Both the position numbers and the translations under genes were made by a program. A stretch of 64,000 bases of DNA. Origin: a virus. The DNA is taken from positions 1 through 64,000 of the IMG/VR virus record IMGVR_UViG_3300031718_000003; one strand, 5' to 3'. Below the pieces are notes generated by a model. That model was not told where the DNA came from. It made no database searches and was given only the letters and a program-made list of their open reading frames with translations. Below are positions 3,086 to 62,888 of this stretch, one piece after another. Position 1 is the stretch's first letter, and each line of letters begins with the position of its first letter.

Positions 3086-3160
3086 TGGAGTCTGAAACAG
3101 GATTTGAACCTGCGACACCTCGATTAACAATCGAGTGCTCTACCGCTGAGCTATTCAGAC
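3086..3160 (-). tRNA. tRNA-Asn (GTT) with encoded CCA
   Basis: Minus strand GTCTGAA TAGCTCAGCGGTAGAGC A CTCGA TTGTTAA TCGAG GTGTC GCAGG TTCAAAT CCTGT TTCAGAC T CCA folds into a cloverleaf. Confidence 0.9.
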
Positions 3161-8997: not shown

Positions 8998-10815
8998 TTA
9001 GCCCGGAATTCTACAGGCCAATTCTGGACGCAGAGTCTTACAGCCTCCGAGCACATCGAGACGCGTGATGCGCCGGTTGGTGCCCATGATGAACCCGCGG
9101 GTCAGGCGCATACTGAGCCCGATCTTGGGATTCGTTACACGTTCGGACCAGTCCAATCCACCCGGTGTCTCAAGCTGTACGACAACCAGCGTGAAAGCAT
9201 CCCTGTGAAATGCGAGGGCCTGTGGAGAGCTGACCGCCGACATCGCCGTGATGGTCGCGGCAACCGTCGAGTTCCAGATCTTGATCGAAGCGGAAGCGGC
9301 CGGCAATGCCGCCACGGTCTGGAACGGGTCCGTGGGGTCGGCGGAAATGGGCGGCGAGATGTTGACGGTCGCGGCGCCGGCGCCGGAACCACTCGTCACA
9401 TCCGCAGTCACCACGAACGTGCGCAGTACGCCCGTATCGCGATAGCTGATGGGATTGACAGAATTCACCCCGAGGATCGAGATGATGTCGCCGCGATTCA
9501 GCACCTGGGTGGACGCGGTCCAGCCGGTGGTGAGAATCGAGGAGCCGCTCTGATTGGCGGCGGTGGTCATGGTTGGAACCGAGAGCGTGAAGGCGCCGGT
9601 GGTAAACCGGGTCACGTTCTGGTCCATCGACCATTTGAAGCCCAGCCCGATACCCATCGTTCCCGAGAGGTACTGCTCGGAGATGGTCTTGGGCGGGTTG
9701 AATAGCGCCGCGCCGAACTCAACCGCCGCCGCTTCCATTTCGGGCGATACGGTCAAAGCGCGGAGTTTCCCGACGGGAGCGCCGGAATTGGAAAGCTGCA
9801 CGCCCGCCGAGGTGTAAACCGTGCGGGTCGTTGGCGTGACACCGGGCTGCGTGCCGATCGCCAGGTTGTAGACGTCGGCGTAGAGGTCGAGTACTTCGCC
9901 GTCGATCTTGTTGGCTATGGTTTGGACCGCAGGTTCGATGTATCTTTCACCGAATCTGTCGATCGTTAAAGTGAGGTCCTGGTCGGAAACGTCGAGATCA
10001 CACCTGAATGTTCAGTTCGGGGCGTTAGGCCGAACCCGTGGCCAAAAAGCCACCGCTGCACGTCACCGTGCACGAGCGGACCATGTCACAACCCCCAGGT
10101 TTCCCCGTGGGTTCTTCCCATTTCGGCTCACTTGAGCCTACGAGCTTTCGCTCTGGTCTCTGCGCCTTCTCCACGCTGCTCTGTGGAGCTTGGTTCACAG
10201 TTGTCTTCCGGATCGTTTCCATGGATTGAAAGAGATTCTGTGAGTTAAGGAAGTTTCTTCAATGGCGATTGCTCGCCAAGGGGGCTAGTTGATCCAACCC
10301 CACAAACGATTGATCGTGATGGGGACTGCGGTCTCGCGGATGTCCTCGGGCTGCGCGGCATCGCCGACGCGGCCACGAAACCTGACGGGAATTCTTCCGT
10401 TTACAGTGTCGTTGACGTTACGATAACTTCGCTAGAGATTATCGGAGCTTGCTCAGTTGAGCAAGGCTTGCTCACCTTTCGATGAGGACCAGACTATATC
10501 ATCGCCCCGAAGGGCGTCCCGCGCTTCCGGCCGCTCGGCCGTACTCCCCGAAGGGATAGTCGTTGAACCTTCTCATCGCTGAGCTTGGCTGCTGATTGCC
10601 CTGGCGTATTGCGCTTTAGGTTTCCAGCAATTCACGGGATTTACAGTCAGGATCACTCCTGACAGGGGCTACACTATTAACCCGATTTTGTTGCCGGGTA
10701 GGGCGAAGTCCTGATCGAACTCGCGGTTCACGTTCTTGAATTGGACCAGGTTGTTTTCCAACCGCATGAGCGAGTTCTGTAGAATCGCCACAGGGTTGAG
10801 TAGTTCGTTTGCCAT
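8998..10815 (-). CDS. P22-type major capsid protein, three exons (10815-10680, 10409-10297, 10002-8998), 417 aa after splicing
   Basis: Spliced read MANELLNP...KIGYTVNGRIPVRF...RLWGCDLDVSDQDLTLTIDRFGERYIEPAVQTIANKID...LAFHRDAFTL...TRLDVLGG...RPELACRI matches the P22 coat family pattern; exons total 1254 nt in frame. Confidence 0.88.
10003..10296 (-). ncRNA. group I intron 2 in coat gene, no ORF
   Basis: 5' exon GGGGU pairs with intron GCCCC (U-G splice pair); R-like GCGCAGAGACCA and S-like GTGACATGGTCC; terminal G; removal restores frame. Confidence 0.82.
10410..10679 (-). ncRNA. group I intron 1 in coat gene, no ORF
   Basis: P AATTGCTGGAAA, Q AATCAGCAGC, R GTTCAACGACTA, S ATGATATAGTCT; P1 GGGU/GCCC; P10 AGUGU with exon ACACU; terminal G. 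Confidence 0.9.
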
Positions 10816-23185: not shown

Positions 23186-23222
23186 GTTGCAATATCCAGC
23201 TCACGGAAGAAGGTAGTGAGAC
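23186..23222 (+). CRISPR. solitary CRISPR repeat 1
   Basis: GTTGCAATATCCAGCTCACGGAAGAAGGTAGTGAGAC, one mismatch to array repeat 9 (61960-61996). Confidence 0.93.
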
Positions 23223-23804
23223 TCAGCTTCTGCTTTGCGCTCTCATCAGTTTCTGCTTTGCGCCCTCAAGCTCCTCTGCTGTAAATAGCTCCGCGAGCGC
23301 CGTAACGGCTACTGGGATCGCTTGGCCGCCTGGTCCGCTCAGTTCTTTGCGATCCACCCAGTCGCCCATCTCGTGCGCCACCTGTTCCTCGTGGAGGCGC
23401 ATCTCGCGCAGTATCCCGGTATCGACGAGGAACTCTTCTACGACTTGGCTCTCATCGCCCGCGCCGATCGACTTCAGTTGGCAGATAACCAGCCCGGTGC
23501 TGCCGCCTGGCGCTTTGCCGGCCAGCTTCGCGGCACGCTCACGGACGACCTGGTCCATGAGTGCGAGCCGCCGGTTCAGCCGCGCGAGGCGAACTTCCTT
23601 GACCGCAGCGCCGGACTCCTTCACGCGCTTGCGCCATTCCCCGACCCAGTGGTCCACCTCGCGGGCGAACTCCGGGGTGGCCTTCCAGCGTTGGATCTGC
23701 CGCGCGCTCACTCCGAGCCGCTTGCCGATTTCATCGTTCGTCAGGCCGCCGAGCGACACCATGCGCGCGGCTTTGTAACGCGTTTTATCCCAGGCCCAGT
23801 CCAC
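23223..23804 (-). CDS. terS: terminase small subunit (N-terminal HTH)
   Basis: LTNDEIGKRLGVSARQIQRWK.TPEF; C-terminal ELSGPGGQAI; upstream of terL. Confidence 0.8.
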   Translation of the reverse strand: MDWAWDKTRYKAARMVSLGGLTNDEIGKRLGVSARQIQRWKATPEFAREVDHWVGEWRKRVKESGAAVKEVRLARLNRRLALMDQVVRERAAKLAGKAPGGSTGLVICQLKSIGAGDESQVVEEFLVDTGILREMRLHEEQVAHEMGDWVDRKELSGPGGQAIPVAVTALAELFTAEELEGAKQKLMRAQSRS

Positions 23805-24060: not shown

Positions 24061-24097
24061 GTTGCAATATCCAGCTCACGGAAGAAGGTAGTGAGAC
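24061..24097 (+). CRISPR. solitary CRISPR repeat 2
   Basis: Identical to 23186-23222; preceded by ATTCCCATTTAGACTGTAAAGCG. Confidence 0.93.
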
Positions 24098-24100
24098 TTT

Positions 24101-24499
24101 TCAGACCTTGGCAGTTTCCGCCGGCAGCATGGGAAGTATGATCGGCGCCGTATCTCCCGGGCTCAAAGCAACGAGTTTGGCCATTCCCTGTCGCAGCAAT
24201 TCCATGCGAATCGTTTCCATCAGCACCATCTGATGTGTCGCGGCTTGGCGGGCGAGCTCGGCAACCTCCTTGGCGGACGTCACCGCTGTTGCGTTGACAA
24301 CGGTCGCGGCTTCGAGACGGTTCATTTGGTCCTTCAGGCTCGAGCCGGTATCCGTTTTGAATTCCATCGCCATCGCGAGAAGCACGGGATGCAGCCTGGC
24401 GACCACGCCGAGAAAACTAATCAGCTTCCAGAGCGCGGCAAAAATAGCGATTGTGCTTACAGCGCAGCCAGCGACCGCGGCTAAGGTTACCCAGTTCAT
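24101..24499 (-). CDS. hypothetical membrane protein, possibly lysis-associated
   Basis: N-terminal TM then GSSLKDQMNRLE motif; strong RBS. Confidence 0.55.
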   Translation of the reverse strand: MNWVTLAAVAGCAVSTIAIFAALWKLISFLGVVARLHPVLLAMAMEFKTDTGSSLKDQMNRLEAATVVNATAVTSAKEVAELARQAATHQMVLMETIRMELLRQGMAKLVALSPGDTAPIILPMLPAETAKV

Positions 24500-41434: not shown

Positions 41435-43912
41435 CTCTTCTCTCCCTCTTTTCTCTCAGCGTGTGATGTAGGCTATCCAGGCGCTGAGGGAGCCGATAGC
41501 GAGGGCGACTGCTGTGGCGATAGTCCTGAGTTTTCGGGTGGTCATAAACACATTTCTTTCTTCGGGGTCGGTAGCCTGCACAGTTCGGCTATCCGCCGTT
41601 TGCGTTCGGAACGATCGAGCGATCAGACTCATGCCGCACCTCGCGCGATCTTCTCGAGCTGCCATTCGCGCACCAGCAGCTTGAGCACTTCCGATTGGCG
41701 CGTCCCGATCGTCAGATCGGCATACCAGTCCTTGACCGCGTGAGCCCAGACTTCGCGGCGCTCTATATCTTCGGCGTTTGCCTCGGCCCACTCGAGAATG
41801 CGCAGCTCCGCTTCGCGCAGGCGGTCACGCTCGGGTAGGGAAGTGGCGTTGCAAGTAGCTGGCGCGCTCATGACTCTCGCTCCTGGCTCTCCGTGATCCG
41901 GAAATGCTTCACGTTTCCGGCCATGGCCTCAAGCTGCTTCAACCGCGCCTTCATGTCCGCGAGATGTTGCTCGCCCTCCTCAATCCATTTTTTGAGCTTG
42001 GGGCGGTCCTCTTCAATTTGTTCGCGCGTTGGACTCAGGCGGCGCTCCAGGCGCTCGGCCTCCCGGCGTTGCTCCTCTTCTTCTCTTTGCTGCCGCCAGC
42101 GTTCGCGGCGCTGCTTACGGGTCTCGTAAAACTGCGGGTCACATAGCAAATCGGCTGTTTGTTTGATTCCGCGCTCGGCGCCGACCGCAAAACTGTGAGC
42201 TACATCGCGGACGACGCATTCCGTGTACGTGGTCAGCCAGCGCAAAACGTCGGGAGTTCGCAAGGATGCGGGTGCTCGGTTCGCATACCGCTCTACCAGG
42301 CATGCAGCCGAATCAAAATGATTTCGTTTTGAAACCGCAGGGGGCAATTGGGCGTTCTCCGCGCTCATACCGCCCCGCCCGCCGCACGCACGCGCTGGCG
42401 CGGATCGATGTAGCGATTGCGCTTGCGGTGTTCCTTTTGCTCCAGCTCCACAACTGCGCGCTCGTAGCTCTCGCCGAAGTGAGGAATGCGAATGTAGAGC
42501 GCGCTCTGCGTCTCCGGCGCCAGCCGGTGGAAGCAACGGCCACAGAATGCGTGCTTGCGCTTCTTGCTGCGCCCGCAGTGGCAGCGCTCGCTTTGCAGGA
42601 TGGCGTATTGCTCGCGCTCGGTGAGGGTTGTCATGCCGCGCCTCCTGTTTCAGGGCGACACGGAGCCCGCACCAGCGACGGCGCAGCGCGCCGAAGCGGC
42701 ATCAACAAAACAAGCTTTTCTAAGGGATCTCCGACTTGACTATCAAGCCGATACAGGACAGAATCAAAAAAGCACAGCATCGTGTTTGCCCTCCTTTTTT
42801 GGGCACAGCATCGTGTTTTGTGTACCTGTGGCTGGTTTGGTTTTCGTTCGCTCTCAAGCCCTTCGAAAAGTTTAGGAGTGAACGAAAGGAGGACTCAGTT
42901 GCGGGGGCGGCCTAGCGGCCGCCGGCATAATACACGTTGTCGGGAGGCTTTTCTCCCGGCGACCGGGTGAGTCAGCCTCCCGCGACTTAACCGTGACTTC
43001 CGATAACGAATAACTTGTCCCGGTAACTTCCCCACCCAATTTCCACTGCTGTAAAACGAGAGCGCATGAGGTGCGCCTCTCGTGCGCATGGCGCAAGAAG
43101 CTATGGAATACGTACGCGACATCTGCGAGGAGCTTCATTCACTCTCCAGAACCGAGAGCCTGGCGAGCGGGGGTGTTCTGAAGGGCCTTAGGGAAAGCCC
43201 ATCCCCCGCTGTCAGGATCCTTTACTGCTATCCAACGGGCTGGCCGGCCACGTCGAACCATTCCACTATACAGGATTCCACAAATTTCGCAATTGAGTTT
43301 ACTAGGGCATCCCCGTCGCCAATAAACTTCGGTAGGCGTTTTTCCAGGGTACGTCCACAGCAATTCCACCGCAAGGGCACCCGTCGTTTCCCGGTCACGC
43401 GATTCGCGCGAGCAGGCTGTCATCGAGCATCGCGCACAAACGCCGGTCACCCCCAACCGGAGCGCCTTCCAGCTCCATCTCGAGGAATCGGAGCACCCTA
43501 TCCCGCGCGCCCTCGTAGTCGAACGGAACAATGTGCTCGGGATCGGCGCGTAGTTCCCGGACCGCTATCGGCCGGATGGCCACAGCCCATTCATAGCCCG
43601 TGGCACGCACCTGGGCGAGATCGCGAAACTCGCGCCGCTCGCGGTCGTAGCGCCACAGTACCCAGAGATATTCCCGCCCGCCAGCGGACCCGGCATATTC
43701 GAGCAGAATCGCCGGCTCCGGGAGTTCCACTCGCGGGATGGCGTCGCCAGGCCGTAGTACTTTACCCTCGAAACCGAACCCGTCGAACGCTTTCGGATCG
43801 ACGCGGGACAGTACTTTGATCCAATCGCCCGCATGGCGTTTCCGCGCCGACCGCGGCAGCCGCACATCGTCTTCGCGGCAGATCGCGCGTCCGCGGATAA
43901 AGGGTTTGGGAC

Positions 43913-45031
43913 TTATATACATGACTCCCCGAGCCTCTGTATAGATTCTGCCGATGCTCCGACAGCGCTCATCCCGAGCGCAAGGTGATTCAAAGCTGCG
44001 TTGTGATCGCGTCCAAGCGTTAGCCCGCAGGCGCACGCGTGCGTTCGTTCGGCGAGCGTCTTAGGAACGATCTTTCCGCAGCCAGAACACTTCTGAGATG
44101 ACCGCCATGGATTGACCGGCACAGCCCAACGCCCAGCTTGTTCGGCTTTGTACGTCGTGCACCAGATCAATACTCCCCAGGCAGCATCCATGATCGACTT
44201 TGCAAGATTCGACCGCGCCATGTTGCGAATCGTTAAATCCTCATAGGCGATCAAATCGTAGTTTGAAACCAGCCACTTTGAAACGTGATGAATGTAATTC
44301 AGCCGGGCATTCGCAGCTCGCTGATGAGTACGCCGCAGCGCTTCACGGGCGCGTACGCGATTCTTTGAGCGTTTCTGCTTACTGGATAGAGACCGGCTCG
44401 CCGCCGCAATCCGGCGCTCGTGTTTCCGGGTCCAGCGCGGATTCTCGATGGCCGAGCCGTCGCTGAGCGTTGCGAGTGACGTTAAACCTACGTCGATTCC
44501 AACAGGATTCGAGACGGCGCACTTATCCGGCGCGGGGCCGGCGTCGCACACTACCGATGCCGTCCAGCGCTTGCCGCCGCGCTTGATCGAACAAACCTTC
44601 GCGCGCCCTTCAATCTTCCGGCCGCCGCGCGCGCGTATATCACCAACGTTGGGAATCTTAATGGACTTCTCCCGGCACACTGGGAGACCGAACGCGAAGG
44701 AATCGTAGCGCCGCCAGGATCGGAAGCGTGGAAACCCCGGCTTTTCGCCGGCCTTGCATCTCCGGAAGAAAGCTTTGAACGCCCGGTCCAGCCGCCGTAA
44801 CGGGTCGCGTTGGATATCGCACGCCATCCACTGGAATGCCGGATCTTTACGCAACTCCGTCAGTTCGTCCTGTTGATCGCGATATGTGATGCTTTTTCGG
44901 GCCATGCGCCAAGCGTCCCGTCTCTCCTGGAGCGCTGCGTTGTATGTCTCGCAATTGTCAGTCAGGATGCGTTCCAAGGCTGCCGTTTGCGCAGCATTCG
45001 GACGAAGACGGAATTGAAATGTCCTCAGCAT
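43913..45031 (-). CDS. tnpB: TnpB RNA-guided nuclease, no tnpA
   Basis: MLRTFQFRLRP, GFPRFRS, VGIDVGL, IAYEDL, SSQKCSGCG...RDHNAALN; D-E-D intact. Confidence 0.93.
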   Translation of the reverse strand: MLRTFQFRLRPNAAQTAALERILTDNCETYNAALQERRDAWRMARKSITYRDQQDELTELRKDPAFQWMACDIQRDPLRRLDRAFKAFFRRCKAGEKPGFPRFRSWRRYDSFAFGLPVCREKSIKIPNVGDIRARGGRKIEGRAKVCSIKRGGKRWTASVVCDAGPAPDKCAVSNPVGIDVGLTSLATLSDGSAIENPRWTRKHERRIAAASRSLSSKQKRSKNRVRAREALRRTHQRAANARLNYIHHVSKWLVSNYDLIAYEDLTIRNMARSNLAKSIMDAAWGVLIWCTTYKAEQAGRWAVPVNPWRSSQKCSGCGKIVPKTLAERTHACACGLTLGRDHNAALNHLALGMSAVGASAESIQRLGESCI

Positions 45032-54669: not shown

Positions 54670-56469
54670 GTGACTGACCTAATGCTAAAGATCTCAGACG
54701 ATCTCTCTTTGCCAAGAAATGCTGTAACCGAAAAACTGGCATGGATCGGAAGGACTGGTTCTGGGAAAACCTATGGAGCCACGAAAGCGGCTGAGCAGAT
54801 GCTCGCTGCTGACGCTCAAGTCGTTACTCTCGATCCTGTTGGAGTGTGGTACGGATTGCGTCTGGCTGCGGATGGTAAATCTCCAGGGCTGACATTGCCA
54901 GTATTCGGCGGCCTCCATGGAGACATTCCGCTTGAGCCCGGAGTTGGTGCGATGATGGCCGATTTAATCGTAGATCGTGGTCTATCTGCTGTTCTGGATG
55001 TGAGCCAGTTTGAACACGACACCGAGAAGGCGCGATTCGCCGGCGACTTCGCTAGCCGCTTCTTCTTCAGGAAAAAGGCGCGGCCATCTGCCGTTCATAT
55101 CTTCATTGAGGAAGCGCAGGAATTTTGCCCGGAAGAGCCGCGACGAGGAGAAGAGAACATGGTGCATGCGTTCACCCGCATGTGGAAACTCGGGCGTAAC
55201 TTTGGCATTGGCGGCTCCCTAATTACGCAGAGGCCGCAGGAAGTTAGTAAGAAGGTGCTGAACCTGGCGGAATGTGTTTTTGCTTTTCAGTTAACGGGTC
55301 CCCATGAGCGTAAGGCACTAGAAAAGTGGATAGCGGAAAGAGGCATCGACGAGGATATCGGGGCGATTCTGCCGAAACTCACGGTCGGGCAAGTTCGCGT
55401 CTGGAGCCCTGCATGGCTAAAGATATCGAAGACGATACAGATTTTACCCAAATCTACGTTCGACGCATCGAGCACTCCGGGAGTCGGCAAGCGTGCGGCC
55501 GTACGAGAACTCGCACCGATCGATCTTGAAAGATTGCGCGTCGATATGGCCGCGACCATCGAAAAAGCCAAGGCTGAAGACCCGCGTGAGCTGCAACGCC
55601 AGGTCCGCGAGCTGAAAGCGAAGATCGCGCAGATGGATAAGGCCGCACCGGTTACGAAAGGCGGCGCGCCGGCAGACGCGGAACAGTTAAAGCGCGAATT
55701 CGACCGTGGGGCGAATTCAGTGAAGGGCCTCCTGGCTAAGGAGCTGCGCGCCTGCTCGAAGACCGCTGCAGCCATCCAGCCCGCAACGCTTGCCGCACTG
55801 CGCGACATGGCGGCAGCGGCGGCACGGGCCATAACACATGTCGAGCAAGTCCAGATGCCATCCATGCCGAGCCTCGAAGGTGTCATCGAGCAAGCGAAGG
55901 CAACACGCTCGCCAGCGGTTCTCCCGGTGCGCACAAAAGTTCCCGTGGAGCGCACGAAAATGGCCGCCGCGAACGGAGAGGCATCCAAAATCGGCAATAC
56001 CGGTCTTCGGCGCATGCTGATCGCTCTCGCGCAGCGCCGTAACGGGATCTCCACCAAGCAGCTTGGGGTGCGAGCGGGGATCTCTAGTAAAAGCGGAACC
56101 TTCGGGACATACCTCGGGCGTGGAAGGGCCAATGGCTGGATCGCGGGAGAACGCGGGCAGTTGAAAATAACCGAGGCGGGAGTTGCGGCGCTGGGAAATT
56201 ACGAGCCGCTTCCGGAGGGTAGGGAACTGCTGGAATATTGGCTGAACGAATTAGGGGATAGCGGGGCCGGGCGCATGCTTAGCGCGCTCGCTGAACGCTA
56301 CCCGCAGGGTTTTACGGCGGAGGAGCTGGGGAAACAAGCGGATATCAGTTCTGCGAGTGGCACGTTTGGGACGTACCTGGGGAGATTGCGGTCGTTGGAG
56401 CTGATTAGTGGGTCGAGGAGTGAGTTGAAAGCTAGTGATGAGTTTTGCCTATGGCTTCGGGGTCGGTAG
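54670..56469 (+). CDS. HerA/DUF87-like P-loop ATPase with two C-terminal wHTH-like repeats
   Basis: GRTGSGKT, IFIEEAQEF, GRNFGIG..LITQRP; duplicated SGTFGTYLGR. Confidence 0.8.
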   Translation: MTDLMLKISDDLSLPRNAVTEKLAWIGRTGSGKTYGATKAAEQMLAADAQVVTLDPVGVWYGLRLAADGKSPGLTLPVFGGLHGDIPLEPGVGAMMADLIVDRGLSAVLDVSQFEHDTEKARFAGDFASRFFFRKKARPSAVHIFIEEAQEFCPEEPRRGEENMVHAFTRMWKLGRNFGIGGSLITQRPQEVSKKVLNLAECVFAFQLTGPHERKALEKWIAERGIDEDIGAILPKLTVGQVRVWSPAWLKISKTIQILPKSTFDASSTPGVGKRAAVRELAPIDLERLRVDMAATIEKAKAEDPRELQRQVRELKAKIAQMDKAAPVTKGGAPADAEQLKREFDRGANSVKGLLAKELRACSKTAAAIQPATLAALRDMAAAAARAITHVEQVQMPSMPSLEGVIEQAKATRSPAVLPVRTKVPVERTKMAAANGEASKIGNTGLRRMLIALAQRRNGISTKQLGVRAGISSKSGTFGTYLGRGRANGWIAGERGQLKITEAGVAALGNYEPLPEGRELLEYWLNELGDSGAGRMLSALAERYPQGFTAEELGKQADISSASGTFGTYLGRLRSLELISGSRSELKASDEFCLWLRGR

Positions 56470-56552
56470 TCCGCTCTATCAGCGGGCGTTCGTTTGCGCC
56501 TGATCCCTCGACCACAGGAGCGCAACAGTTAAAATGAGGGAGATTAGTAAAA

Positions 56553-58289
56553 ATGGCCGTGGAAACGAAAACTTATATCGCTTATACTTACGGCTGCCCC
56601 CAGCCCAATCACCAGGTATTTAATTATGCCTTGGCCGAGATGCGCCGCCGCAACGATCTCTGGAACAAACTAGTCGAAATAGATCGCCGATTTCGCCTAG
56701 CTTCCTGGAATATCTATGCGGATGTCCCCGAACAGAAAATCGCCGATGAGTTGGCGGGCGTGATCAGGGCGTGGCGCGAAGAACTCAAGGGCCGCCGGCA
56801 AAAGGCGCGCCGCCGCGTGGATGCCACGGATCTCGTGGAAAAGATCAAAACTGCGAAGATGGAATTACGAGTCGCCTCTAAAACCGCTAGAATTGCCCGC
56901 CGTGCGGCCATCGAACGAAACCGGGCGGCGCTGAAGACCCTGGACGAATTACGCCGGTCCGAAGTCAATAAGGCGTGTCTTGCGAGCAATCTCTACTGGT
57001 GTAACTGGGATGAAGTGCTCGCAAAATACGAAGTAGCGCGAGTTCGCGCCATGAAGGCCGGGGTACTGCTACGTTTTCATGCATGGAGCGGCGTTGGAAA
57101 ACTCACTGTGCGGTTCCAAAAAGGGCTCGCTTCCGATCTGGTGTTTGGTGGGGATACGAGATTGCAAATCGATCCCGTCAACAGTGACGCCTGGAATTCC
57201 CCGGCGCGCAGTGTCCGCGGAAAAAGTATGTATACAAAAATTCGTATACGCATGGGATCACACAATCGCAAACCTGTATGGTTCGAAGCGCCCATGGCGA
57301 TGCACCGCCCGTTGCCGGAGAGAAGCGTGATCCGCACCGCCGCGATCGCCTCCGAGCAGATCGGAGGCGTTTTGCGCTGGCACGTCATCCTAACGCTTGA
57401 ACTGCCATCTGCGCGTCAGGCGAGGATCGGTCCGGCGGTAGGTGTAGATATCGGATGGCGCTTACTGCCTGGAAGGCTGCGGGTCGCATACTGGGTCGAT
57501 GAATATGGCGGCAAAGGCGAAATCGCGCTCTCCGACTCCATTGTCTCGCAATTCGCAAAAGTACGGGATCTTGATGCAATCTTGGGAAATCATTTCGAAC
57601 TCGCAAAGGTAAAACTTGGTGCGTGGCGCGCGGGGTATTTCGAACCGCTGCCGGAATGGCTCAATCTCACCCGTATGGATCAGTGGAGAGATCAGCGCCG
57701 GTTCTATGAGCTTTGGACACTCTGGAAGGATTCCCGATTTGCTGGCGACACTTATGGATTCGATACCGTATCCGAGTTTGCCGAGCGCTACGCTCATTTG
57801 CGGAACTGGCGCGAGAACTTACAGGATCAGGTCATCGCCCGCAGGAAGGACACGTACCGGAAAGCCGTATGCGATCTGCTCCGGAACCACGGGGACGTGT
57901 TTCTTGAGAAATTCGATCTTCGCAACATCGCTGAAACACCGGACCCGGAGACGAGTCCCACAGTAGTAGTAATGGATTCGGCTCGCCGCCGCGTGATTGC
58001 CGCGCCTGCGAGTTTGCGTGAGATGCTGGTCCATAAGGGCCAGTGGATGGAGGTTCCAGCACCGGGGACCACGCAGGAATGCGCCTGGTGCGGTTATGCC
58101 GCTGCCTGGGATGCGGCCCCAAGCATACTGCATCGTTGTGGAGGATGCGGAAAGCTCTGGGATCAGGATGAGAATGCAGCAGTCAACATCCTGCGGCGTG
58201 GTTTAGCGCAGATTGGGAGGGATTGGAAGCCGGAATTCGATCCGCGAAAAGCGGACGGGATGGAAGTGGCCGAAACCGTTGCGGGTTAA
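56553..58289 (+). CDS. cas12m: type V CRISPR effector, Cas12m (V-U1)-like
   Basis: 578 aa; LYWCNW...LRFHAWSGVGKLTVRFQ and MHRPLP resemble Cas12m; RuvC VGVDIGWR / VFLEKFD / WDQDENAAVNI; Zn finger; array begins 14 bp downstream. Confidence 0.8.
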   Translation: MAVETKTYIAYTYGCPQPNHQVFNYALAEMRRRNDLWNKLVEIDRRFRLASWNIYADVPEQKIADELAGVIRAWREELKGRRQKARRRVDATDLVEKIKTAKMELRVASKTARIARRAAIERNRAALKTLDELRRSEVNKACLASNLYWCNWDEVLAKYEVARVRAMKAGVLLRFHAWSGVGKLTVRFQKGLASDLVFGGDTRLQIDPVNSDAWNSPARSVRGKSMYTKIRIRMGSHNRKPVWFEAPMAMHRPLPERSVIRTAAIASEQIGGVLRWHVILTLELPSARQARIGPAVGVDIGWRLLPGRLRVAYWVDEYGGKGEIALSDSIVSQFAKVRDLDAILGNHFELAKVKLGAWRAGYFEPLPEWLNLTRMDQWRDQRRFYELWTLWKDSRFAGDTYGFDTVSEFAERYAHLRNWRENLQDQVIARRKDTYRKAVCDLLRNHGDVFLEKFDLRNIAETPDPETSPTVVVMDSARRRVIAAPASLREMLVHKGQWMEVPAPGTTQECAWCGYAAAWDAAPSILHRCGGCGKLWDQDENAAVNILRRGLAQIGRDWKPEFDPRKADGMEVAETVAG

Positions 58290-58647
58290 CGATTTGCGGA
58301 GCCGTTGCAATACCCAGCTCACGGGCGAAGGAAGTGAGACAATCAGTCCGGTTGGTCCCGATTCAGTCCCGATTCAGGGTTGCAATACCCAGCTCACGGG
58401 CGAAGGAAGTGAGACGATAGACACGGCAGCATCGAAAACGACACTAAATATGTTGCAATACCCAGCTCACGGGCGAAGGGGTAGTGGGGTCTTTTGAATT
58501 TCCACCGTCTTGATTTTCAGTCATGCTGGAATTGTGATTCCTCCGGCGTTTCCTCACTTGCTGCCTCGCTTTCCCGGCGTCCCGTGGCGCTATCCGCGAC
58601 CGCTCCCGCAGGTATATCCTTGGAAGGCTCCAAGGAGAGCAAGAGCC

Positions 58648-59451
58648 ATGACGATAGCGGTCGGGGTCCTGGCAGGTGATGGGGTGGTGTTAGCAGCGGA
58701 CACGGAGTACACGTGGGGCTATCTCAAAACGAGCGGAGAAAAGATATGGACCGCTGAAGGCCACGGAGCCTTGGCCATTGCGGGCGCTGGCAATGGTGCG
58801 TACTTGTCCGCAATCGCTCAGCAGATGATTGATGCGTTTAAAGCTGCGCCGAAGACGATCTCCGTCGAGCGCCTTTACGAGAAATTCTCAGAAATCCTGA
58901 CAGACTTTCATAGCAAGCATGTCATAAGGTTCGCGCATCTCGGCAGTTCGGTCGCTATTTCGCTGCTAGTCGCGCTCCAACGAGGCAAGGAGGCGTATCT
59001 TTGGGCAAGTGAAAACGATTCCCTGGAGAGATGCGGACCCTATGCGTCCATTGGTTTGGGCTGCGAATACGCCAATGCCCTTTTGGGTGAGATGTTCGCG
59101 GGTACGGCGGTGTCTTGGAAGGCGAGCGTTCCGTTGGCTGAACGCATCGCGGCCTATGCGGTGTTTGAGACGAAAAACAACGTACGGGAGTGCGGAAAAA
59201 AAACCTCTCTCGTCGCCATCCAGAAGGGGCACATTGTGGAAACGAGCGCACAGAAGATGCTGCTCATTAATTCGCACCTCAATGCGTTTTCTGAGATCCG
59301 GATCTTGGGGACGAAATATGCTCTTGGGTTCCCATACCCCGACGCGACAAGTGCGTCAGAAAAACTCATGGCCTACTTGGGCGGATTGCGGCAAGACGTG
59401 CTCGCGATTGAAGGCCAAACCTTCGAAGGAAAAGGGCGGAGTCTTGAATAA
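58648..59451 (+). CDS. proteasome beta-like Ntn-hydrolase passenger
   Basis: M-TIAVG...GVVLAADTE...KI...AGAG...YASIGLG; Thr1 after Met; RBS AAGGAG. Confidence 0.65.
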   Translation: MTIAVGVLAGDGVVLAADTEYTWGYLKTSGEKIWTAEGHGALAIAGAGNGAYLSAIAQQMIDAFKAAPKTISVERLYEKFSEILTDFHSKHVIRFAHLGSSVAISLLVALQRGKEAYLWASENDSLERCGPYASIGLGCEYANALLGEMFAGTAVSWKASVPLAERIAAYAVFETKNNVRECGKKTSLVAIQKGHIVETSAQKMLLINSHLNAFSEIRILGTKYALGFPYPDATSASEKLMAYLGGLRQDVLAIEGQTFEGKGRSLE

Positions 59452-59456
59452 CCTCT

Positions 59457-60305
59457 CTAGGCGACACGGCTCAGTTCTCTCGTCTCGGACAACGCGACGA
59501 TCTCTTCGAACGACCACACATGATCCGCGATCCCGGCTGCCATTGCTGGCGTAACTCGTAGCGTCTGATGGATGCGCGCGAAGTTGTAATACATGTAGTG
59601 GAGGGCCACGGCTGCCTCGTGGTTCTCGATCTTCTTTGAAAAGCCGTTCGTCAACCGAGTGAAGCGGCGCATGGACATCCGCATTGTGAGATTCTGGCGT
59701 TCCACATAGCTCGTGCTGATATGCCTTGGTTCGGGATCGCCGAGTCGGATGATCTTCTCGGCGCCGGTGCAAACCGCAGGGCTGTACCGCTTTTGCGGCT
59801 CGGGTTCGTTGCCGAAGTATTTCACGAGCTGCGCGTAATCCACTTCGTCGGCGAAAGCATCAATCACGGCGTTGAGGTAAACTTTGTGGCCGTCCGTGGT
59901 AAGTTGGACACGATGGGCGAGTTTGCGTTCCAGAGCGGCGATGAATTCCGTGGCGCTGCCAGCTCCCCTATCGCCCACGAGCCAGCATGGAACAAGCTTG
60001 GTATCCGCGTCGATTGCGACCCAGACCCAAGCGTCGCCTACGACGCGCTCTTCGGCCATCTTCGTGGTGACGTTCTTCTGCTTGCAGCCGATATAGCTCC
60101 AGATCTCGTCACATTGAATACGTCGGCATTTCAGGTTGCGGAAGACGCGGTCCTGATAGCGGTAGCAGGCGATCCCGACCTCAACGAGGAGACGCGTCAC
60201 CGGGCGCTTCTCGTGGCCCGTCATGCGGCAGATGGAACGGATGGAATTTCCTTCGACGAGTGCGGCAATGATTCGGGCGCGTTCTCCGATGCTCAGCCTG
60301 TTCAT
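59457..60305 (-). CDS. IS1-family transposase
   Basis: HTH GNSIRSI.R, IQCDEIWSYIG.K, TTDG...Y, STSYVERQNLTMRMSMRRFTRLTNGFSKK. Confidence 0.93.
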   Translation of the reverse strand: MNRLSIGERARIIAALVEGNSIRSICRMTGHEKRPVTRLLVEVGIACYRYQDRVFRNLKCRRIQCDEIWSYIGCKQKNVTTKMAEERVVGDAWVWVAIDADTKLVPCWLVGDRGAGSATEFIAALERKLAHRVQLTTDGHKVYLNAVIDAFADEVDYAQLVKYFGNEPEPQKRYSPAVCTGAEKIIRLGDPEPRHISTSYVERQNLTMRMSMRRFTRLTNGFSKKIENHEAAVALHYMYYNFARIHQTLRVTPAMAAGIADHVWSFEEIVALSETRELSRVA

Positions 60306-60346
60306 AGGTCTATTATGCGCTAGCGCTCGCGCATAGTCAAGGGGAA

Positions 60347-60820
60347 ATGACGATGGCTAACTGGATAGATGAGTTATGCGAGGAGATTCTCCGGGATGGC
60401 CGCCACAAAAGCGTGGCGGAGGAATTGCGATTACACCGCGCCGGGGTACTGGAGCAGGAGGGCCGGTTTTTCTTTGAAGAGCTGAGGCGAGAGGTTAAAG
60501 ACGGGCTGCCGACCATAGGCACGCGCCTGGGCCTATCCCCAGCGGACCTCCGATTCGAGGGAAAGGACGATTTCTTCCAGATAACAAACCATTCTCACTA
60601 CCCAGTGGTCACCGTCAAGGCCGAATACATGCTGAAGCGGGTTTTGCTCAATATCAAGAGGAAGCAGGCTGATGTCCGCACTCCAGCGGAAGAGACGCGG
60701 GATTCTATCGATTTTTGTGTCAAGGCTGACGATGAGCTTTACTTCTGCCACAAAGGAACGACACTCCCGGGAATTGATGAGGCGGTAAAATTGGTATTCA
60801 GGCCGCTATTTTCCACCTGA
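60347..60820 (+). CDS. IS1 passenger, hypothetical
   Basis: Divergent from the transposase. Confidence 0.55.
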   Translation: MTMANWIDELCEEILRDGRHKSVAEELRLHRAGVLEQEGRFFFEELRREVKDGLPTIGTRLGLSPADLRFEGKDDFFQITNHSHYPVVTVKAEYMLKRVLLNIKRKQADVRTPAEETRDSIDFCVKADDELYFCHKGTTLPGIDEAVKLVFRPLFST

Positions 60821-60839
60821 TCCTTCAGTGCCCGTTAGC

Positions 60840-61229
60840 CTATTCGCCGGGCTGTTTGGCTGCTTGTAGCGCTTTGCGCCGGGCCGCCGCCGATACACTA
60901 TCGATCTCAGACTGAGGCGCGCCATTAGCTTTCAACGCAACGATCCGCAAGGCCTCCGGCACAGGAATCGCAAGATTCTCGGGTTCCTGATAGAACCGGT
61001 CTACGGCTTTTACTAGCTCAACCATGCTGAGCGGTTCTGGAATGTACGGGCGTGACGGAGAACGAGCTGCCCGTAACCCATCCAGAAAACCGACTAGGTA
61101 ATTCCCCTTGTCCATGAAAACCTGCCAGTGCCGCCCGTTGCACATGCCATTCGTAAAGGGCGGAATGGCTGGCTTTTCCTGAGCTACAGAGAGCAGAGTT
61201 AACGCAAGCAGAATCAAGGCAGGTTTCAT
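60840..61229 (-). CDS. IS1 passenger, secreted small protein
   Basis: Signal peptide; NG..W...YL.GF.DG...VDRFYQ.PEN..IP. Confidence 0.6.
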   Translation of the reverse strand: MKPALILLALTLLSVAQEKPAIPPFTNGMCNGRHWQVFMDKGNYLVGFLDGLRAARSPSRPYIPEPLSMVELVKAVDRFYQEPENLAIPVPEALRIVALKANGAPQSEIDSVSAAARRKALQAAKQPGE

Positions 61230-61486
61230 CGGGGATCTTTACCCGTTTTTCCCCACCGCGCCTGCGCAGCTCGCTTGGCCGAAGCCTTGCGCTGCGCTGG
61301 GCTGAGCCTTGCGTTCAAGGTGGCCGCGCCCTTTAGCCCGCCACGCCGCCCCATTTCGCGCATGATCTGAGAGACGGTGGAGCGGTCATCGAGATCTACG
61401 GGCAGTTCGGAGCCGGTGCTCTTAGCTACGATGGATGCAGCAAACTGATTGATGTCCTGCGATTTTGTCCGCGTGCGCTTGGGCAT
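61226..61486 (-). CDS. IS1 passenger, KGG-type basic protein
   Basis: DINQFA..IV...MGRRGGLKG...LSP.QR...AKRAAQARW; TTGACG-17-CATACT promoter inside the TIR end. Confidence 0.65.
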   Translation of the reverse strand: MPKRTRTKSQDINQFAASIVAKSTGSELPVDLDDRSTVSQIMREMGRRGGLKGAATLNARLSPAQRKASAKRAAQARWGKTGKDPR

Positions 61487-62888
61487 GACAGCTTCAAGTA
61501 TGGCAGGTTACGGGCCAACGTCAAGCCTGTGGAAATTCAAAAGACCCCACTACCGGCGAAGGAAGTGAGACTAGGAAGCTGTATCCGGCTCCCCGCGTTC
61601 ACATTCGTTGCAATACCCAGCTCACGGGCGAAGGAAGTGAGACCGATCAGTGCAAGGCGTACTCGCCGAATCACAAGGGGTTGCAATACCCAGCTCACGG
61701 GCGAAGGGAGTGAGACACGAAATCGGCAAGCGGCTCGGAGTGAGCGCGCGGCAGTTGCAATACCCAGCTCACGGGCAAAGGGAGTGAGACCTAAACGGCG
61801 TTCCAGTTCCGGCGGAATGCACTCCGTTGCAATACCCAGCTCACGGGCAAAGGGAGTGAGACGTGTCAAGGCGTGGCTGAAAGCAGTCAAGCTGCTCGCC
61901 AGTTGCAATACCCAGCTCACGGGCGAAGGAAGTGAGACAGCATCACGACCGTAAGGCCGGTTGCAATATCCAGCTCACGGAAGAAGGAAGTGAGACGCTC
62001 AATCTCATGTCGCTGTGACGCCCGGATAACTGTTGCAATACCCAGCTCACGGGCGAAGGGAGTGAGACAAGATTTAGAAACAGGTTTAACTGGAAGCAGG
62101 AAGGGTTGCAATACCCAGCTCACGGGCGAAGGAAGTGAGACAATATGGTGCTGCTTCGCTTTTCAGAAGTTGCAATATCCAGCTCACGGGAGAAGGGAGT
62201 GAGACGAGACGAAAGAATCGCAGCAACAGCGGGGGTGGGGGTATTGCAATACCCAGCTCACGGGCGAAGGAAGTGAGACTATTATGCCCCTCGGCATGTG
62301 TGAAAAGACCAACCGTAGTTGCAATACCCAGCTCACGGGCGAAGGGAGTGAGACCGTTAAAAGCATAGGCTAGGGGAAGACGGATTTTCGTTGCAATACC
62401 CAGCTCACGGGCGAAGGGAGTGAGACCGGAGCATATCCCGCTGAAGGTTCTTTGGAACGGAGTGTTGCAATACCCAGCTCACGGGAGAAGGGAGTGAGAC
62501 TCGGCAGATTTCCAGCGGGACCAAAGCCCGCAGAGCGGTTGCAATACCCAGCTCACGGGCGAAGGGAGTGAGACACATCTTGAGGGTTTCACGACAGAAG
62601 AGATGCCAACAGGTTGCAATACCCAGCTCACGGGCGAAGGAAGTGAGACAAACAAGTGCCCAGGTCAACAAAAATGTTTGGGGAGTTGCAATACCCAGCT
62701 CACGGGAGAAGGAAGTGAGACGTGGTCAACCGTTCCGAACGCAAACGGCGGACCGCTGAAGGCAGAGCCGGGCTGACCCAGGAAGAATTATGTGTGCGTT
62801 GCCAATTGGGGTCAAATGGGTCTTCATCCGGCCAGCGATCATACAAGAAAATGTCATCCTGTAAATTCACGGCATAGCTTGGCATAGT

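Follow-up and report, generated by a model that had tools for sequence, protein, structure and literature searches.

The closest described relatives of the system reported here are the Cas12m proteins, effectors of the type V-M (earlier V-U1) CRISPR-Cas systems. In the assays of Bigelyte et al. 2024 (PMC11013384), eight Cas12m orthologues were tested, four of them with the acidic triad D-E-D in the RuvC domain; cleavage of double-stranded DNA (dsDNA) was found in none of the eight and binding dependent on a protospacer adjacent motif (PAM) in six. Cas12m proteins with D-E-D, H-D-D and N-D-D triads were all without dsDNA cleavage and bound DNA in a PAM-dependent manner, at T- and C-rich PAMs (PMC11013384). 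Purified MsCas12m, which carries D-E-D, showed neither target nor collateral cleavage of DNA or RNA, purified GoCas12m showed no collateral activity, and TfCas12m gave plasmid interference in Escherichia coli when the ori was targeted (PMC11013384). Here we describe a Cas12m gene and its CRISPR array in a soil phage, found in a stretch of 64,000 nucleotides (nt) that comprises positions 1 to 64,000 of the IMG/VR virus record IMGVR_UViG_3300031718_000003 and is referred to below as the window.

In a division cited by Omura et al. 2023 (PMC10442227), Cas12m falls into four clades with the triads HEK/HQK, HDD, DED/NED and DED/DND/NED for clades 1 to 4, respectively, and these authors raised the possibility of two-metal hydrolysis in clades 3 and 4. 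When the H-D-D triad of Cas12m2 was changed into D-E-D, cutting was not regained (PMC10442227). A phage Cas12m, MvCas12m of myxophage MV-1, was reported in a September 2026 preprint (bioRxiv 10.64898/2026.09.14.751636), in which two-metal hydrolysis was guessed for this protein as well and the spacers had no targets in public virus databases. The preprint claims the first phage Cas12m, although UnCas12m had been taken from IMG/VR already in 2024 (bioRxiv 10.64898/2026.09.14.751636; PMC11013384).

Against this background we consider it likely that the protein of the soil phage, guided by CRISPR RNA (crRNA), binds DNA in a PAM-dependent manner and silences mobile elements with which the phage competes, and that the phage's own copy of a terS-like gene, which one of the spacers matches, is spared through a missing PAM and a mismatch in the seed.

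A full-length Cas12m encoded by a soil phage

The open reading frame (ORF) of cas12m at 56553-58289 is open over its full length and its product of 578 amino acids is a full type V-M (V-U1) Cas12m with a long helical REC region. The PADLOC model Cas12u1 (V-U1, now V-M) matched the protein with an expect (E) value of 1.8e-102 over model positions 3-531 of 533. The top sequence match among solved structures was PDB 23vw (E 5.7e-110), an entry deposited as 'CRISPR-associated DNA-binding protein Cas12m', which is TfCas12m because the supplementary sequence in the paper that assayed it reads the same as the aligned chain. Lower matches were obtained to Cas12m2 (8hio, 2.4e-29), GoCas12m (8pm4, 2.8e-26) and UnCas12m4a (23vu, 6e-24), and TnpB chains in the PDB were reached only at E ~0.1. 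The family is large, with 1,303 clusters (50% identity) matching at E 1e-30 or better.

An AlphaFold model built on 30 homologues had a mean predicted local distance difference (pLDDT) of 88.8 and a predicted template modelling score (pTM) of 0.78. Helices occupy residues 20-169, a beta-rich WED domain residues 182-284, and the RuvC strands begin at 296, so that the model shows the bilobed Cas12m fold, i.e. a WED domain, long helices in the REC1/REC2 region, a RuvC that is split and a TNB zinc finger in about 600 residues. In Foldseek the top matches of the model were Cas12m2 and GoCas12m with template modelling (TM) scores of 0.76-0.80, whereas Cas12f and TnpB reached about 0.4. The three RuvC motifs are VGVDIGWR with D299, VFLEKF with E452 and DQDENAA with D539, and the zinc-finger cysteines C510, C513, C529 and C532 are invariant in the 30 closest relatives.

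The general libraries gave a different first impression. Pfam and NCBIfam see just the C-terminal part of the protein, which resembles TNB and TnpB, and such matches would be expected of a common TnpB associated with a transposon, beside which the repeats lie by chance. These matches are, however, far under the family cut-offs (NCBIfam guided_TnpB with 47.8 bits against a cut-off of 100, in the C-terminal third only), and the Pfam domain OrfB_IS605 had no match in the protein. TnpB structures were reached at E ~0.1 against 1e-110 for Cas12m, a genuine TnpB of the same phage is only a distant outgroup in the tree described below, and an array follows the gene both here and in most of 21 related viral loci. 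The PDB sequence matches, repeat covariation, Foldseek and PADLOC thus rule out the TnpB reading, to which we give a negligible chance.

The first-pass annotation of this DNA, made from its letters and ORFs, had proposed a phage-borne Cas12m-like effector with acidic residues in RuvC-I, RuvC-II and RuvC-III, and all of this is borne out by the three residues above, by the end-to-end Cas12m matches and by the portal, terminase and scaffold genes of the record. The structure prediction that it called for likewise led to Cas12m2 and GoCas12m, and in the phylogeny the protein grouped with UnCas12m in a clade of 43 tips and showed no clustering with TnpB. Its placing of the protein as an intermediate between TnpB and Cas12m has to be given up: matches to Cas12m run end to end at E 1e-102 to 1e-110, compared with ~0.1 for TnpB, the REC region is long and helical, and the evidence of PADLOC, PDB, AlphaFold and Foldseek is decisive for a full Cas12m rather than a halfway form.

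The virus record is linear, 74,759 bp long and 91% complete according to CheckV. It encodes a portal protein (E 1e-129), a large terminase and a scaffold protein, and beyond the array lie tail-like proteins with Ig domains and an endolysin; with phage genes on both sides, the CRISPR module is therefore inside the phage genome. Pfam models of Cas1, Cas2 and Cas4 had no match in the whole record, although the same searches matched control genomes, which upholds the earlier reading that adaptation genes are absent, and Cas1 was not found in five related virus records either, one of which is 100% complete. Because cas1, cas2 and cas4 are missing, the phage alone cannot acquire new spacers. A single-protein search of IMG/VR gave no close relatives of the effector; an alignment query of the same database gave the 21 loci encoding relatives, most with an array just downstream.

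Conservation of the triad and the question of cutting

The triad was counted in a sample of 206 relatives of 480-720 amino acids. D-E-D was present in 159 of these (77%), the others having scattered H, N, K or other replacements, and in a FastTree phylogeny the replacements fell in about 35 separate groups. Among the 30 closest relatives D539 was invariant and D299 and E452 were at least 90% conserved. In the tree the studied protein is placed in an all-D-E-D subclade (support 0.99) with P0002, which at 49% identity is, with P0003 and P0006, among its closest homologues; it shares the 43-tip clade with UnCas12m, and the phage's own TnpB of 372 amino acids is the distant outgroup. D299, E452 and D539 fit clades 3 and 4 of the published scheme. 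The D-E-D triad is therefore ordinary within Cas12m and no mark of distinctness, and the earlier statement that it sets the protein apart from the characterised Cas12m does not hold, given that clades 3 and 4 carry DED and that four D-E-D orthologues have already been tested.

Whether the triad still works is a separate matter. An active RuvC site would let the phage enzyme cut or nick its target DNA, or cut single-stranded DNA or RNA, and so destroy competitors; the conservation of D299, E452, D539 and the entire DQDxNAA motif is like that in TnpB and Cas12 enzymes that are active, the triad is kept by most of the relatives counted above, and the two-metal suggestion for clades 3 and 4 (PMC10442227) as well as the guess made for MvCas12m in the 2026 preprint lean in the same direction. 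All four tested D-E-D Cas12m proteins were nevertheless without dsDNA cleavage, and two of these four, TfCas12m and UnCas12m, are about 40% identical to the protein studied here and belong to its clade of 43 tips. In addition, purified MsCas12m cut neither DNA nor RNA, as target or collaterally, the depositors of 23vw named their protein a DNA-binding protein, and the change of Cas12m2 from H-D-D to D-E-D gave no cutting. The triad was lost in about 35 separate lineages, so it is dispensable. We therefore hold an active nuclease to be unlikely, with a small chance left to it, and the first-pass suggestion that nuclease activity may be retained goes against the best available data. Still, the near-universal retention of D-E-D in a family whose tested members lack dsDNA cutting may point to an undiscovered catalytic activity, and the present locus is relevant to asking what preserves the catalytic triad in a family of binding, non-cutting proteins.

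The array, its guide RNA and its targets

The stop codon of cas12m ends at 58289 and the first repeat begins at 58304, which leaves the gap of 14 bp that had been noted before. The anatomy of the array had been missed: it is not one short block but a total of 19 repeats and 18 spacers of 21-39 nt, split by an insertion element of 3 kb (Table 1). The repeat of 37 nt (e.g. 58304-58340) is on the same strand as cas12m. Its folding was analysed with a set of 16 repeats taken from this phage, including two variant copies, and from 11 related viral loci, by counting pairs for a stem plus pseudoknot and using 500 shuffles as control. The pseudoknot helix of five pairs, made up in this phage of CTCAC and GTGAG, was paired in 100% of cells over the 16 repeats, compensatory changes were found in 5 of its 5 pairs, and none of the 500 shuffles reached the observed covariation. 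When the 3' partner was slid by 1-3 columns, pairing fell from 93% to 21-46%. In variant repeats of the phage's own array a C-to-T change in the stem is accompanied by G to A on the other side, and the positions of the pseudoknot helix agree with the published handles of Cas12m2 and PmCas12m.

No anti-repeat longer than 11 nt was found anywhere in the record, and thus no candidate for a trans-activating CRISPR RNA (tracrRNA). The repeat alone forms the Cas12m handle, probably giving a single crRNA without tracrRNA, so that the earlier proposal of a possibly tracrRNA-free effector is probably right. The repeat belonged to no Rfam family; a tRNA and a group I intron were all that Rfam reported in the window.

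The distribution of the repeat was followed with an exact pattern of 20 nt. There was no match in IMG/VR, three single matches in GTDB genomes, close to what chance alone would give, with no host array, and in JGI metagenomes related arrays (L028, L030 and L032) and one solitary repeat (L031), again with no host. The solitary repeat (L031 2323-2359, minus strand) differs from the phage consensus at 3 of 37 positions, lies on an unrelated soil contig of 3.3 kb and was also seen in run X2 (see below); as part of another element it might act as a single guide unit or as a decoy RNA. In the closest viral relative (39% identity) the array (L013 11751-11997) consists of repeats that diverge strongly among themselves but keep the pseudoknot through paired changes, and its spacers differ in length.

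Matches to the spacers were found in Logan contigs of run X2, an independent soil sample from a different study. One contig matches spacer 62355-62389 perfectly over 36 nt, another matches spacer 62575-62612 over 39 nt with one difference, and in a third the match starts at 61997, the first base of spacer 61997-62031, with C as the -1 base. The two readable 5' flanks of these protospacers are CCC and CCT. Two flanks and one further base suggest a C-rich PAM, roughly CCN, and C-rich PAMs are within the published range of the Cas12m family (PMC11013384). Spacers of the distal array had no match in GenBank phages, and in the related loci that were fetched their matches stayed at chance level. The CC-rich flanks in an independent soil sample offer a starting PAM and real protospacers for a D-E-D Cas12m, and the targets are likely live.

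The element that splits the array is of the IS1 family and sits in the third repeat. A Logan contig of soil run X1 spans both of its junctions, and run X2 holds the same element with zero differences, continuing into unrelated sequence, so the element is mobile and active. The perfect target duplication and inverted repeats, together with the identical copy elsewhere, argue for a very recent insertion. Besides the transposase the element carries a proteasome/HslV-like ORF (58510-59451) and three ORFs without family match. Two spacers remain directly behind cas12m and the other 16 lie beyond the element. The last gene at its right end (61226-61486) is directed away from the distal part of the array, and upstream of 61572 no promoter on the plus strand was predicted.

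This arrangement raises the possibility that the module is a decaying passenger, cut from its transcription by the insertion and no longer working in this phage. The position of the element in the third repeat, the direction of gene 61226-61486, the lack of a predicted promoter before 61572 and the self-matching spacer would all fit decay, and self-matching spacers often accompany damaged CRISPR loci. We nonetheless find decay improbable: cas12m is intact with a good ribosome-binding site, both crRNA units of the proximal part are undamaged, the 16 repeats of the distal part are close to perfect, and the insertion is very recent.

One spacer of the distal part matches the terS-like gene of the phage itself at 36 of 37 nt. 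At this self-match the flank reads ACG where the outside protospacers have CCC or CCT, and the single mismatch falls at seed position 2. Two solitary repeats, 35 kb from the array, bracket the same terS-like gene, which encodes a helix-turn-helix (HTH) protein, and an ORF of 46 amino acids, and are antisense to the flanking genes. A motif of 22 nt with a -10-like hexamer, TAGACT, is placed directly before the second solitary repeat and 146 nt before the first, and a promoter scan gave no promoter before either of them. Neither the terS protospacer nor relatives of the terS-like protein were found in IMG/VR.

A non-cutting Cas12m might accordingly be used on the phage itself, with the terS spacer and the solitary repeats guiding control of the packaging genes, e.g. 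keeping late genes off in lysogeny. Such use would account for a spacer that matches the phage's own gene, for identical solitary repeats with intact handles that bracket exactly this gene and for a -10-like hexamer placed at one of them for an RNA start at the repeat, and the phage does encode a tyrosine recombinase. Self-regulation has little chance in our estimate, however, in view of the ACG flank and the mismatch at seed position 2, the antisense direction of the solitary repeats, the failure of the promoter scan, the DNA before these repeats, which is the repeat end GAC and not a PAM, and the absence of any related phage found for comparison. On a bolder view, also unlikely, the terS spacer and the solitary repeats would either give Cas12m control over late genes of the phage itself or mark these genes, so that competitor phages nearly identical to it are silenced and self is spared, the insertion upstream of the self-matching spacer would have brought relief from self-silencing and, separately, the retained D-E-D would serve an activity not yet found. 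In any event, an array freshly split by a mobile element beside a self-matching spacer is a case for studying how a phage handles self-targeting by a CRISPR system of the silencing type.

The reading that we prefer, silencing of competitors by binding, can be set out as follows. The locus appears to be a complete stand-alone type V-M CRISPR-Cas12m module on a soil phage, in which cas12m and the array are most likely co-transcribed, since only 14 bp lie between them. Each repeat folds into a pseudoknot handle and would make one crRNA with the spacer that follows it, without tracrRNA, as the covariation and the lack of an anti-repeat indicate. The Cas12m-crRNA complex would recognise dsDNA beside a 5' PAM that is probably C-rich, approximately CCN, and, to judge from the tested relatives, would stay bound and block transcription or replication of the target without cutting it. 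The targets would be other mobile elements in the same soils, and the phage may turn the module on its competitors while it infects or is lysogenic. The terS-like copy of the phage itself would escape the one spacer because it has no PAM and differs at seed position 2. Following the recent insertion, the two proximal spacers remain behind cas12m, while the other 16 may be poorly expressed.

Several points weigh against this reading. The triad is retained in 77% of relatives and nearly invariant in the 30 closest, so that it probably still does something, and the published assays may have overlooked a conditional activity or one on substrates other than dsDNA. The PAM is taken from two read flanks and one further -1 base in Logan contigs, the contigs with the targets may come from bacteria and not from mobile elements, and the insertion may have inactivated most of the array.

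Surroundings of the module and comparison with known systems

Table 1. Positions in the window of the features of the cas12m module, its edges and the repeats and spacer related to the terS-like gene.
Feature	Position	Strand	Description
Dispersed bipartite element copy	56455..56503	-	About 45 nt, exact match 56455-56497; directly upstream of cas12m; left module edge
Promoter-like site and Shine-Dalgarno sequence	56508..56542	+	TCGACC, 16 nt, TAAAAT; then GAGGGAG 10 nt before ATG; predicted by consensus scan
cas12m gene	56553..58289	+	578 amino acids; type V-M (V-U1) effector; RuvC D299/E452/D539; CCCC zinc finger
CRISPR array, proximal part	58304..58479	+	Two full 37-nt repeats, spacers 58341-58378 and 58416-58451, first 28 nt of third repeat
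IS1-family element	58480..61554		3,075 bp inside third repeat; 26-bp terminal inverted repeats; 8-bp target duplication GGCGAAGG at 58472-58479 and 61555-61562
IS1-family DDE transposase	59457..60305	-	282 amino acids; Pfam DDE_Tnp_IS1 E 2e-8; NCBIfam transpos_IS1 E 8e-14
CRISPR array, distal part	61555..62721	+	Last 17 nt of split repeat, 16 full repeats, 16 spacers
Self-matching spacer	61717..61753	+	36/37 nt to own terS-like gene, minus strand 23734-23698; mismatch at spacer position 2; 5' flank CGAACG
Degenerate bipartite element copy	62735..62785	+	Just after last repeat, inverted relative to the 56455 copy; right module edge; CCCAGGAAG instead of CCCCGAAG, fails strict pattern
Solitary repeat 1	23186..23222	+	Handle intact; abuts stop codon of terS-like HTH gene (23223-23804, -); pseudoknot kept, compensated stem change
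Solitary repeat 2	24061..24097	+	Identical to solitary repeat 1; 3 nt from stop codon of ORF 24101-24499 (-)

The gene directly upstream of cas12m (54670-56469, plus strand) encodes a HerA/FtsK-like ATPase of 599 amino acids, matched by PADLOC HerA at 1.5e-14 and by a PHROG annotated as 'terminase large subunit' at 3e-19. A system of several genes was considered and rejected, given that the neighbours (an ORF of 294 amino acids, the HerA-like ATPase and an HNH protein) are not conserved beside cas12m in the related loci; since neighbour genes are not common to these loci, cas12m and its array form a self-contained module.

Both edges of the module are marked by copies of a dispersed bipartite element. 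Its pattern, GCAAACG and CCCGAAG separated by 22-36 nt, has 31 exact copies in the window (from 837 to 56497) on both strands, compared with 0.02 expected; most of them are intergenic, and two more lie beyond the window (L001 9458-9500 and 9942-9985). In run X1 a contig departs at 62752 from the copy behind the array, and its further letters agree with the inside of the 41560-41603 copy, a switch that hints at recombination between copies or at an ambiguity of assembly. The tyrosine recombinase of the phage (27911-28555, plus strand; 214 amino acids, phage-integrase family, E 2.5e-32) may take part in lysogeny or work on the dispersed element.

Other features of the window include the genuine TnpB (43913-45031, minus strand), which has the HTH_OrfB_IS605, OrfB_IS605 and TNB domains that identify a TnpB. 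A group I catalytic intron (10470-10688, minus strand; Rfam RF00028, 88.7 bits, matching the model over its full length) is located in the region of the structural genes, just downstream of the scaffold gene and on its strand, and a tRNA gene (Rfam RF00005, 71.6 bits) is found at 3089-3160 on the minus strand.

Of the known systems, TnpB of IS200/IS605 shares with the studied protein the core of RuvC and zinc finger and the D-E-D triad. It is a protein of about 400 amino acids that lacks the long helical REC insertion and cuts DNA, and its similarity here is limited to E ~0.1 and TM ~0.4; it uses an omega RNA from the transposon end, whereas the gene studied here has a CRISPR array of 19 repeats. 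MmCas12m2 (8hhl, 8hio) and GoCas12m (8pm4) agree with the phage protein in fold (TM 0.76-0.80), in the order of the domains and in a crRNA handle of pseudoknot plus stem that ends in AC, but have an H-D-D triad, about 22% identity and a place in actinobacterial chromosomes.

MvCas12m is by description a close parallel, i.e. encoded by a phage, with D-E-D (D305/E463/D555) and an adjacent array and without cas1, cas2, cas4 and tracrRNA; it differs in its length of 610 amino acids and in having 8 spacers. TfCas12m of Thermanaerosceptrum fracticalcis (QNB45423.1; 23vw) is about 40% identical over the full length, is of similar size (567 versus 578 amino acids), has the D-E-D triad (its D306/E459/D550) and the DQDxNAA motif, and has the array-adjacent, tracrRNA-free layout described for the tested Cas12m set. 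Unlike the protein of the soil phage, it is bacterial and not phage-borne and has been assayed, with no dsDNA cleavage, and the phage protein has its own repeat and likely its own PAM.

UnCas12m (IMG/VR Ga0104756_100012943) corresponds to P0018 in locus L007; the two read the same as far as the supplementary sequence is shown. It is 39% identical to the studied protein over 537 residues (E 9e-113), carries D-E-D, belongs to the same clade of 43 tips and has a 37-nt repeat with the same pseudoknot; its gene, too, belongs to a phage, whose genome of 90,067 bp has direct terminal repeats and is 100% complete by CheckV, with a downstream array and no Cas1. The phage is a different one, from a deep subsurface aquifer, with neighbour genes not in common and an uninterrupted array. 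As P0018 is part of a complete phage genome, the published cleavage assays already include a D-E-D Cas12m that a phage carries. Cas12m with D-E-D, Cas12m on phages and Cas12m loci that lack adaptation genes and a tracrRNA have thus all been published before, and the effector itself adds little to them.

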